64,000 nucleotides of DNA. Origin: Mangrovicoccus sp. GTDB taxonomy: Bacteria > Pseudomonadota > Alphaproteobacteria > Rhodobacterales > Rhodobacteraceae. The DNA is taken from the NCBI GenBank assembly GCA_025800345.1, contig JAOXSB010000073.1, positions 21,467 to 85,466 of the forward strand. Direction: 5' to 3'. The stretch's first letter is position 1. Every line of letters starts with the position of its first letter. Below are positions 59,536 through 61,356 of the stretch, piece by piece. The notes under the pieces were generated by a model that worked only from the letters and a program-made list of their open reading frames with translations, made no database searches and had not been told where the DNA came from. Both the position numbers and the translations under genes were made by a program.

Positions 59536-59627
59536 CGCCTATTCCTTTTTTACAACATCACTGGGGGGCCCCGACCGGTAAGTGCCGGGTCACCCTGATT
59601 CCAGTGGAGATCGTGGATGAAGCGCGC

Positions 59628-59656
59628 GTATAGGCCCAAGCGCCAAGGATAGCAAG
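59628..59656 (-). promoter_or_regulatory. Candidate promoter for rpmC and downstream genes (CTTGCT-N17-CTATAC on minus strand)
   Basis: Hexamers read from the sequence resemble the alphaproteobacterial CTTGAC/CTATAT consensus. A promoter is needed here if the terminator after rplP is functional. Confidence 0.3.
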
Positions 59657-59731
59657 CCTTTCCCGCAGCAGATGAATGAGGAACTGAATAGGACAACTTT
59701 GGGCGCACAAGGTTGCTGCGATCCATTCCGT

Positions 59732-59783
59732 AACGACAACGACAACGACAACGACAACGACAACGACAACGACAACGACAACG
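59732..59783. repeat. Hexanucleotide microsatellite (AACGAC) x about 8.7
   Basis: Perfect tandem copies counted directly: 8 full units plus AACG. Confidence 0.95.
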
Positions 59784-59890
59784 CGGCCCAGGCAGCGGGC
59801 ACCCCTTGTAAACGGAACAGCCACTCACTATTTATCAATTATCCGTGATGAGTTTACGGGATTAAGGGGTATAATTATTATTTTTTCCAC

Positions 59891-60145
59891 ATGGTTAGAC
59901 TTTTGAAAGAACCAATGAACCAGCAAGAATACCTAAACCAGTTCGAACTGAACCAAATAAAAATCACGCGCACGCGCTTAACTTTCGACGAAGCGGTAGC
60001 TGTATGGCACATGCACTGGGATGAAAACTTCAATAGCCTGATAGCCGCGAAGTTCGGCGTCAATCAGGGCCGGATCGCTGAAATCCTCAACGAAAAGGCC
60101 CATATAGGCTCGCGTGAACGCGCTTTTCAGCTTAGATCAGGTTAA
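59891..60145 (+). CDS. Small HTH protein (sigma-r4/Nlp-like), AT-rich foreign-looking gene
   Basis: 84 aa. LTFDEAVAVWHMHWDENFNSLIAAKFGVNQGRIAEILNEKAH resembles small phage/plasmid-type HTH proteins. A TATAAT box lies at 59870-59875. Confidence 0.55.
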   Translation: MVRLLKEPMNQQEYLNQFELNQIKITRTRLTFDEAVAVWHMHWDENFNSLIAAKFGVNQGRIAEILNEKAHIGSRERAFQLRSG

Positions 60146-60157
60146 AAGCTACTAACG

Positions 60158-60179
60158 CAGCCGCCTCTCGGGGCGGCTG
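60158..60179. terminator. Hairpin CAGCCGCC-N6-GGCGGCTG between convergent genes
   Basis: Perfect 8-bp stem read from the sequence. The flanking T-runs are weak. Confidence 0.45.
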
Positions 60180-60192
60180 TTCACTTACACAA

Positions 60193-60813
60193 TCAGTCCC
60201 AGCGATAGTTAAAGCTGACGCTGATGCGCTCTTCTTCGGCCATATTCATGGGCACTTCATGGCGCAGCCAGCTTTCCCATAGCAGCACATCCCCCACCGC
60301 CGGTTTGGCATAAACAAAGGTCTGCATCTCTTCGCGGGCGGATTTGCGCCGCGCCGGGGCGGCCATCAACCGGCCCGAACGGGGATCTTCAAGCTTTAGC
60401 GCGCTGGTGCCCTCGGGCATGGAGACATAGGTGGTGCCCGAGATCACCGAATGCGGGTGCAAATGCGAGCTATGGGTGCCGCCTTCGGGCAGGATATTGA
60501 TCCACAGATCTTCGAGCTTGAGTTCGCGCCCATCAAGATCAAATTCCAGATCTTCGGCAAAGGCCGCCACATGTTTATCCAGCGCAGTCACCACATCGGC
60601 AAAAATTGGAAAGCGCCAGGGCAGATCGGTCAGGGAGGCATAGCTGGTATAGCCCGGATAGCCGTTTTCCTCGCACCAGATCTGACCGGCGCTGTCATCC
60701 TCGGCGATAACCAGGCAAGAGTTTTCCAATTCCTGCGGATCGACCTTATCGCCGAACTCGGAAAGCTTGGCGCGGTAAAGACGGGTAACGAAAAGCGATG
60801 TGATCTGTGCCAT
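60193..60813 (-). CDS. 2OG-Fe(II) oxygenase superfamily protein (TIGR02466 / 2OG-FeII_Oxy_5-like)
   Basis: HSSHLHPHSVISGTTYV ... GDVLLWESWLRHEVPMN...ERISVSFNY matches my memory of this family. Confidence 0.7.
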   Translation of the reverse strand: MAQITSLFVTRLYRAKLSEFGDKVDPQELENSCLVIAEDDSAGQIWCEENGYPGYTSYASLTDLPWRFPIFADVVTALDKHVAAFAEDLEFDLDGRELKLEDLWINILPEGGTHSSHLHPHSVISGTTYVSMPEGTSALKLEDPRSGRLMAAPARRKSAREEMQTFVYAKPAVGDVLLWESWLRHEVPMNMAEEERISVSFNYRWD

Positions 60814-60924
60814 GGGCTCTTCCTAGAGCATGGGCGCGGCGGGAAAAACCCCAAGACGCCGCCCTGCCCCGCCCTTAAAAAGGAATTGCTCGCCCGTTCA
60901 ATGATTCCCCCCCAAAGGCCACGC

Positions 60925-61269
60925 ATGACCCGCGCTGAATTCCTTGCGGCGATCGAAATCGCCAGCCGCCCGCCCGCACCTCAGGATCTGAAAGACGCGC
61001 CGATGATCGAGCCCTGGTGGGTGGAGCTCGACGATCAGTTCTTGCATTTGCACGGGCTGGTGCAAGGCCATCCCCTGCTGCCCGATGGGCCAGTGAACAC
61101 CTCGCCGCTTTTGGCATTCGATCTGGAAGTCCGCTGGGCGCGCACTGCCTCGCGCTGGTATCGCCTTGGCCCCACTTGGCAAGGCATGGCACCGCAAGAG
61201 CAAAGCAGCGCCGGGCAATCGCTCAGCGATGGGTTGCGGCAATTGCGGGCGCAATTGCGCAGCCATTAA
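60925..61269 (+). CDS. Hypothetical protein
   Basis: Part of a longer track ORF (60451-61269) that overlaps the oxygenase gene antisense. ATG 60925 (or 60901) gives a non-overlapping 114-aa product. No recognisable domain. Confidence 0.45.
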   Translation: MTRAEFLAAIEIASRPPAPQDLKDAPMIEPWWVELDDQFLHLHGLVQGHPLLPDGPVNTSPLLAFDLEVRWARTASRWYRLGPTWQGMAPQEQSSAGQSLSDGLRQLRAQLRSH

Positions 61270-61290
61270 AACCCGCCCTTCTGGCACCCG

Positions 61291-61332
61291 AAAAAGAAAA
61301 ACCCCCGCCATTTCTGGCAGGGGTTTGATTTT
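61291..61332. terminator. Strong bidirectional hairpin immediately downstream of rplP
   Basis: On the minus strand: ACCCCTGCCA-GAAA-TGGCGGGGGT (one mismatch) followed by TTTTTCTTTTT. On the plus strand it is followed by TTGATTTT. Confidence 0.6.
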
Positions 61333-61356
61333 CATCCGGTCACAAGACCTGCGGAA

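Follow-up and report, generated by a model that had tools for sequence, protein, structure and literature searches.

In the Rhodobacteraceae bacterium Mangrovicoccus sp., the ribosomal protein genes rplP (L16) and rpmC (L29) are separated by 1,821 bp (positions 59536-61356 of the 64,000-nucleotide stretch analysed here, hereafter the window), and we consider it probable that this gap is a spacer peculiar to the family, lying between two ribosomal units that are transcribed separately and composed of a predicted terminator, a predicted promoter, a candidate RNA leader, an old oxygenase gene and swappable cargo. The upstream unit, rplB-rplP, would start with a leader of the RF03142 family and end at a strong intrinsic terminator after rplP, and the downstream unit, rpmC-rpmD, would have its own sigma-70-type promoter and a 5' untranslated region (UTR) with a covarying hairpin next to the ribosome-binding site. 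Because transcription would stop and restart there, the spacer would tolerate extra DNA and could have become a small flexible islet, in which a TIGR02466 oxygenase gene would be the old resident and the cargo around it would differ by genus. The cargo of this genome would be a DUF6634 gene and a self-contained, AT-rich module of 525 bp, acquired very recently, and cargo probably enters by homologous recombination, for which the strongly conserved ribosomal genes on either side would serve.

The gap between rplP and rpmC across the family

In a DNA search of 40 relatives, many genomes of the same family had the oxygenase gene in the interval from rplP to rpmC. For a survey of this interval, the rplP-rpmC locus was fetched from 80 same-family genera and the genes were placed by tblastn. 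The gap was measurable in 69 of the 80 loci; the other 11 either ran off the end of the contig or showed no rpmC within 7.5 kb. More than 780 bp separate the two genes in 56 of the 69 genera. The oxygenase gene lies inside the gap in 49 loci (gaps of 914-5,901 bp), seven loci have a gap of 0.8-2.5 kb without it, and the remaining 13 have a gap of 88-353 bp. Outside the family, in ten of ten genomes from the sister family and other alphaproteobacterial families, rplP and rpmC are only 6-42 nucleotides (nt) apart, supporting the initial view that a split at this point is unusual for bacteria in general.

In the window, the gap and its two flanking genes are organised as follows, in the direction of ribosomal transcription:

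61357-61770, minus strand: rplP (L16), open reading frame (ORF), final gene of the upstream ribosomal unit rplB-rplP
61289-61326, minus strand: predicted intrinsic terminator, 12-bp GC-rich stem, GAAA loop, then TTTTTCTTTTT
60925-61269 (likely extent), plus strand: DUF6634 (PF20339) gene, 114 amino acids (aa), running towards rplP (convergent) and away from the oxygenase gene (divergent)
60193-60813, minus (ribosomal) strand: TIGR02466 / PF13759 2-oxoglutarate (2OG)-Fe(II) oxygenase gene, 206 aa
59668-60192, no strand: strain-specific module of 525 bp, from the alignment with sister-strain contig L123
60158-60179, no strand: bidirectional hairpin CAGCCGCC-N6-GGCGGCTG, read from the sequence, within the 525-bp module
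59915-60145 (76 aa) or from 59891 (84 aa), plus strand: small ORF
59847-59881, plus strand: AT-rich promoter-like region of the small ORF, by consensus match only
59732-59783, no strand: (AACGAC)x8.7 microsatellite, between the divergent promoters of the small ORF and rpmC
59628-59656, minus strand: predicted rpmC promoter, CTTGCT (59656-59651), 17 nt, CTATAC (59633-59628)
59552-59609, minus strand: candidate structured 5' leader of rpmC, from covariation and covariance model R1
59329-59535, minus strand: rpmC (L29), first gene of the downstream unit rpmC-rpsQ-rplN...rpmD

The original prediction, made from the DNA letters alone, had reported a separation of 1.8 kb occupied by a microsatellite, an AT-rich stretch, a TATAAT box, an oxygenase-like gene, a plus-strand ORF and two hairpins, all of which are present. 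It had interpreted them as a rare foreign cassette, i.e. a recent horizontal insert of the whole 1.8 kb, peculiar to this genome, that broke a continuous S10 operon. We consider such an event exceedingly unlikely. It would fit with the drop in GC content in part of the gap (0.45-0.46 over 59700-60150 versus 0.594 for the genome), with a plasmid-related ORF among the cargo and with the adjacency of rplP and rpmC outside the family, but the oxygenase gene, the predicted terminator and promoter and the leader are common to most genera of the family, which contradicts it for 60193-61356, the oxygenase gene has a native GC content of 0.54-0.60, and only 525 bp are specific to the strain. Independent insertions of one mobile element are equally unsupported, as there is no integrase, tRNA or flanking repeat. 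Thus, of the proposed foreign insert only 59668-60192 is both foreign and recent; most of the rest is shared with relatives, with the oxygenase gene in most of the relatives' junctions compared and the DUF6634 gene in a congener.

The predicted terminator starts about 30 nt after the rplP stop codon and has the GC-rich hairpin and U-tract expected of an intrinsic terminator. Of 81 family genomes, 73 have a strong hairpin with a U-tract no more than about 130 nt beyond the rplP stop, genomes with short gaps among them. Upstream of rpmC, the sequence cTTGCC-N17-CTATAc recurs in register in almost every genome of the family whose gap reaches 160 nt, and the promoter proposed at 59628-59656 is thus conserved across the family. 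The insertion had been expected to disturb the stoichiometric expression of the genes downstream; the terminator after rplP and the conserved predicted promoter and leader of rpmC argue against this expectation. The proposal of two hairpin terminators is retained in part: that at 61289-61326 is strong and has a U-tract, and that at 60158-60179 is weaker and bidirectional. On one side of the gap, rplP is 80-93% identical to its counterparts in relatives; on the other, the downstream genes run contiguously to about 55,500, from rpmC through rpsQ and rplN on to rpmD without gaps.

A candidate RNA leader of rpmC

Between the conserved promoter and the Shine-Dalgarno sequence of rpmC, which follows about 15 nt further downstream, 59 aligned genera share a structured leader. 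Its fold consists of an outer 6-bp helix enclosing an AAUCA internal loop, a GGG(U)/(G)CCY helix, a GA/UGA bulge, a CCC/GGG helix and a variable loop as cap, laid out as CCACYRG / AAUCA / GGG-U-GA-CCC / variable loop / GGG-GCC / NN / CYRGUG. When a structure of 12 pairs was scored over the 59 genera, 97.2% of the cells were paired, compared with 39-56% when the partners were slid by one to three columns. Cells changed on both sides numbered 51, compared with 15 in shuffles, and none of 500 shuffles scored as high. Compensatory changes occur in four pairs of the given structure (e.g. C-G in 39, U-A in 10 and G-C in 3, or G-C in 36 and A-U in 21), and the RNAalifold consensus has essentially the same fold, with five compensatory pairs.

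Covariance model R1 finds a single hit in its own genome (59552-59609, 62.9 bits, E 3e-15), the next best reaching 18.7 bits. Within the same order, 112 of 114 genomes of the family have exactly one hit, and six genomes of the sister family have none. Two weak hits were all that it returned from 150 other families, and these were dismissed as neither is adjacent to rpmC. When 58900-62000 was compared with Rfam 15 (4,227 families) at E<=1, no family matched the leader and only noise on the terminator was returned. Literature searches for an rpmC leader or for a split between rplP and rpmC yielded nothing relevant, and the 2020 catalogue of ribosomal leaders holds no rpmC, L29 or S17 motif (Eckert & Weinberg 2020, PMC7247131). 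Taken with the covariation, this makes the rpmC leader a well-supported candidate for a new structured RNA outside Rfam 15.

Most likely, the hairpin would act as an autoregulatory leader that is bound by a protein of the rpmC-rpmD unit. It might instead be another kind of element, such as a 5' stem-loop that stabilises the mRNA, a site of RNase processing or an attenuator of transcription, and such a role would be in line with the lack of an rRNA look-alike detectable with R1 in the 16S, 23S and spacer sequences of a relative, with one genome (L029) in which the hairpin directly follows the terminator with no promoter in between, and with a subgroup of genera in which a further 5' hairpin, with a motif also present upstream of rplB, precedes it. 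We nevertheless find these roles rather unlikely, since conservation is as strong in the unpaired AAUCA and (U)GA nucleotides as in the helices, which is typical of a surface contacting a ligand and not of a mere stabiliser. Furthermore, the hairpin has no U-tract of its own, and it adjoins the Shine-Dalgarno sequence of rpmC, the gene with which a ribosomal-protein unit opens, the classic layout of a ribosomal leader.

The further hairpin just mentioned was seen in 15 genera (L021, L033, L034, L043, L046, L058, L062, L064, L069, L073, L074, L077, L085, L088 and L090), where it is GC-rich, ends in GGATTCG and lies between the -10 box and the rpmC leader. In the genome analysed here, a similar hairpin containing CGGATTCG is located upstream of rplB (L134:1060-1100), and ribosomal mRNAs may have hairpins of the GGATTCG type as a common 5' element.

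Oxygenase, cargo and the 525-bp module

That the gene on the ribosomal strand is 2OG-Fe(II) oxygenase-like, as originally stated, is supported by profile matches well above the cut-offs, both for Pfam PF13759 (E 7e-35, 119.8 bits versus 27) and for NCBIfam TIGR02466 (E 2e-87, 291.9 bits versus 62.5, positions 2-201 of 201). Over its full length the protein is 78% identical to PDB entry 3BVC (ISM_01780 from Roseovarius nubinhibens) and 76% identical to 2RG4 (from Oceanicola granulosus), which belong to the same family and have the same His cluster and R-x-S. These identities support a double-stranded beta-helix fold, for which the protein's own model is of moderate quality (predicted local distance difference test, pLDDT, 61), but both entries are uncharacterised structural-genomics depositions with no assigned function, so that no mechanism can be taken from them. 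The nearest named homologues are from Leisingera, Nioella, Thalassococcus, Ruegeria and Shimia. Seven residues are invariant in 22 homologues (H114, H117, H119, H121, H185, R196 and S198), and the family pattern is H-x-H...H...R-x-S, with H117, H119 and H121 as a cluster, as opposed to the usual H-x-D/E of 2OG oxygenases. Among the more distant fold neighbours identified by Foldseek, small-molecule oxygenases (FtmOx1, HygX, TlxI) and prolyl hydroxylases score alike, and for this reason no substrate class can be given; a literature search on TIGR02466 function found no characterised member.

The oxygenase gene lies on the ribosomal strand in 26 genomes and is inverted in 24, counting the window, and its orientation varies even within the genus of the window. 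In 14 of the 24 inverted cases the start of the gene is 190-330 nt from the rpmC start, and in all gaps below 1.2 kb that hold the gene it is inverted. On these two grounds, the ancestral layout was probably rplP, terminator, inverted oxygenase gene, and then promoter, leader and rpmC, with the oxygenase gene head-to-head with the rpmC promoter. Pairwise identity of the oxygenases tracks that of rplP plus rpmC only weakly (Spearman 0.23), a value at which vertical descent and exchange are not separable.

The persistence of this gene beside rplP raises the question of whether its product acts on the ribosome, for instance by hydroxylating L16 or some other product of the two units, in which case the cassette would be a working part of the ribosomal cluster. 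RoxA/YcfD, the JmjC-type arginine hydroxylase of L16 in E. coli, is not encoded in the ribosomal cluster. It resembles the oxygenase of the window in being a 2OG/Fe(II) enzyme, with a substrate that is the product of the very type of gene that neighbours the latter, but it belongs to PF08007 (JmjC_2), whereas the oxygenase of the window gives only PF13759 and a weak PF13640 match. A role analogous to that of RoxA would agree with the position of the gene beside rplP/rpmC in so many genera, often head-to-head with the rpmC promoter, with the presence of prolyl hydroxylases among its distant fold neighbours, with the retention of the arginine of VRMGKGKG in L16, and with the absence of any PF08007 (RoxA-type) gene from the genome, in a search that did find one in the E. 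coli control. We still judge such a role improbable. Linkage inside one family can be plain inheritance, either orientation occurs, and a terminator lies between the oxygenase gene and rplP. In six further alphaproteobacterial families, neither rplP nor rpmC occurs within 1.5 kb of the orthologues (47-72% identity), and in several genomes of the family itself (G005, G009, G125, G203, G208) the gene is on another contig. Moreover, the oxygenase family is also found in cyanophages (phrog_81), and the small-molecule oxygenases are equally close in fold.

The gaps have hardly anything in common besides the oxygenase gene. Among 145 cargo ORFs from about 55 gaps we found 62 Pfam families, none of them in more than four genomes, including NAD-binding/epimerase, SnoaL, methyltransferase, EF-hand, Fic/Doc, hemerythrin and ferritin families and a CAP12/Pycsar TIR effector. 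The gaps of relatives also hold toxin-antitoxin pairs of the RelE and Doc types and, in one locus (L021), an IS30 transposase ORF, and together with the TIR effector these indicate that the islet can carry defence and addiction genes. In the window, the plus-strand ORF that had been listed as having no known identity is the DUF6634 gene (Pfam E 1.3e-13), the start of which was set by the MTR(A/N)EF conserved in the 67% identical homologue of a congener (G003); it occurs in only two of 81 loci, those of the window and of this congener.

Such a site, fixed in position, with conserved flanks and a content that varies between genera and even strains, resembles the flexible genomic islets, or integration hot spots, that lie between conserved core genes. 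It differs from them in its position inside the ribosomal-protein supercluster, in its small size (0.9-6 kb), in its one constant resident gene and in having no tRNA, integrase or flanking direct repeats. Indeed, the gap of the window contains no tRNA and no recombinase ORF, and it lacks these hallmarks of an integrative mobile element or classical genomic island. A search for direct or inverted repeats flanking the gap or the 525-bp module gave only matches at chance level, and repeats were for this reason rejected as a cause of the flipping of the oxygenase gene or of the insertion of the module.

The youngest part of the gap could be delimited with L123, an independent metagenome contig of a sister strain that encodes an oxygenase 99% identical to that of the window. 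The DNA of the two is 93.9% identical on the oxygenase side and 98.4% identical on the rpmC side, the former homology stopping at the oxygenase stop codon and the latter resuming at about 59667. In L123 only 67 nt lead from the oxygenase stop to the rpmC promoter, and the 525 bp at 59668-60192 of the window are missing. On this segment are the microsatellite, the hairpin at 60158-60179 and the small ORF, preceded by its AT-rich, promoter-like stretch. The hairpin lies between the convergent oxygenase gene and small ORF, and its U-tract is weak on both strands. Promoter-like signals of the small ORF are TATAAT at 59870-59875 and TTTACG-17-TATTAT at 59853-59881. The microsatellite is the sole perfect hexamer repeat of at least five copies in the 3.38-Mb assembly and is absent from the sister strain.

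Only two clusters of homologues of the small ORF were found among 5.8 billion proteins. Members of the first are on contigs of about 5.7 kb from hydrothermal-vent metagenomes (L099-L102), with an RPA replication initiator, an HTH_17 protein, ParD/ParE and a BrnT fragment, and these contigs look like circular permutations of one small plasmid. The second is represented on another Rhodobacteraceae contig (L103:1-275 and 660-890), where the homologue is convergent with rplP and lies in AT-rich DNA between rplP and the 3' end of a catalase-peroxidase-like (katG-like) gene, so that the same rare gene recurs in the same islet. The absence of 59668-60192 from the sister strain and the plasmid-borne relatives of its ORF bear out the earlier suspicion that the AT-rich part is foreign and recent, and the small ORF is, as far as its homologues indicate, a rare mobile gene. 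It had been described as a small helix-turn-helix (HTH) gene with a perfect TATAAT box. Both the ORF and the box are there, but the HTH has no profile support, comparison with Pfam, NCBIfam, PHROGs and PADLOC giving no real hit, and only an HTH-like pattern is seen in the all-helical AlphaFold model, which at a pLDDT of 52 is too weak for a structure search; the product is possibly DNA-binding. The module ends 8-11 nt upstream of the -35 box of rpmC, meaning that the region upstream of the predicted promoter was replaced by more AT-rich DNA, and this may affect promoter strength.

The module could in principle be an assembly chimera that is not truly in the chromosome, as the assembly is in 326 contigs, the composition of the module is atypical and the sister strain does not have it. 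This is very unlikely, as the module is flanked to left and right by collinear homology within a single contig of about 90 kb, and as the homologue of the rare ORF in the same islet beside rplP, on an independent Rhodobacteraceae contig, means that an insertion here is biologically precedented. An artefact of the whole layout is unlikely as well: the same layout is found in complete genomes, and the independent contig confirms the side from the oxygenase gene to rpmC. With its many contigs, a partial 16S only, at a contig end, and 23S and 5S probes that found nothing, the assembly looks like a metagenome-assembled genome.

A segmented ribosomal supercluster

The break between rplP and rpmC is not the only one in this supercluster. 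Just beyond the right end of the window, rplW and rplB are separated by 2.1 kb (L134:980-3112), an interval that holds a Fic/DOC-family gene of 420 aa and an ORF of 207 aa with no match in Pfam. Directly upstream of rplB we found RF03142 (39.7 bits versus a gathering threshold of 37.8), so that a known leader candidate heads the unit closed by the predicted rplP terminator. RF03142 is the L2-Alphaproteobacteria ribosomal protein leader (Eckert & Weinberg 2020, PMC7247131). It shares with the rpmC element the status of a candidate cis-regulatory RNA and a place where the S10 cluster is interrupted: both immediately precede the opening gene of a unit and come after a gap with non-ribosomal genes. 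The two differ in sequence and fold, and RF03142 has no hit in 58900-62000 at E<=1. The candidate element upstream of rpmC is thus the counterpart of RF03142 for the next unit.

A comparison with E. coli is instructive in this respect. There, rpmC and rpsQ are within the S10 operon, no terminator follows rplP, and autoregulation is exerted by L4 at the S10 leader and by S8 at the spc mRNA. By analogy, a ribosomal protein may bind structured mRNA near its start and control a unit of several genes here as well, and the rpmC-rpmD unit of the window does hold spc genes, including rpsH (S8). The differences are that the boundary between the units has moved in the window and that the rpmC leader is unrelated in sequence to those of E. 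coli.

One further structured RNA of the window lies far from these genes, a bacterial RNase P RNA of class A (RF00010, 296.5 bits) at 20635-21002 on the plus strand.

Several points weigh against our reading of the gap as a spacer between two separately transcribed units. As high rplP DNA identity guided the choice of 60 of the 80 loci surveyed, the percentages of the survey lean towards closer kin. The activity of the terminator and of the promoter and the existence of the rpmC 5' UTR are inferred from sequence and conservation, and in L029, with its leader directly after the terminator, read-through may matter. The leader is absent from six family genomes with gaps of 88-160 nt. Folded alone, the copy of the window is no better than shuffles (z -0.35), hence the case for the leader rests on covariation. 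When R1 was run against the 16S, 23S and spacer sequences of the relative (G004), no match scored above 7.6 bits (E 0.8). The oxygenase tree is poorly resolved, with one of 47 branches well supported, and the number of inversions or replacements is accordingly uncertain. Finally, the two junctions of the module rest on one metagenome-type assembly.

It is possible, though on balance doubtful, that the rpmC hairpin is a new, family-wide autoregulatory leader of a re-drawn rpmC-rpmD operon and that the terminator-promoter gaps of the supercluster (rplW|rplB and rplP|rpmC) are landing pads for recombination, with the oxygenase perhaps kept for an action on the ribosome. If this were true, the ultra-conserved flanks would let cassettes swap between genera, e.g. 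in the roughly 4-kb DNA of gene transfer agents.

We believe that the spacer between rplP and rpmC would be of interest beyond this genome, as it would mean that a highly conserved bacterial gene order was re-cut into separate units in a large and ecologically important marine family. Clean cuts, with a terminator, a promoter and a leader, would explain how foreign genes can reside inside a ribosomal cluster without upsetting ribosome production, and the candidate rpmC leader raises the question of which ribosomal protein binds it. Furthermore, a widespread oxygenase family, also carried by cyanophages, has gained a genomic context, and the gap offers a fixed and easily recognised site at which gene gain, such as that of the 525-bp module, may be read at the level of strains.

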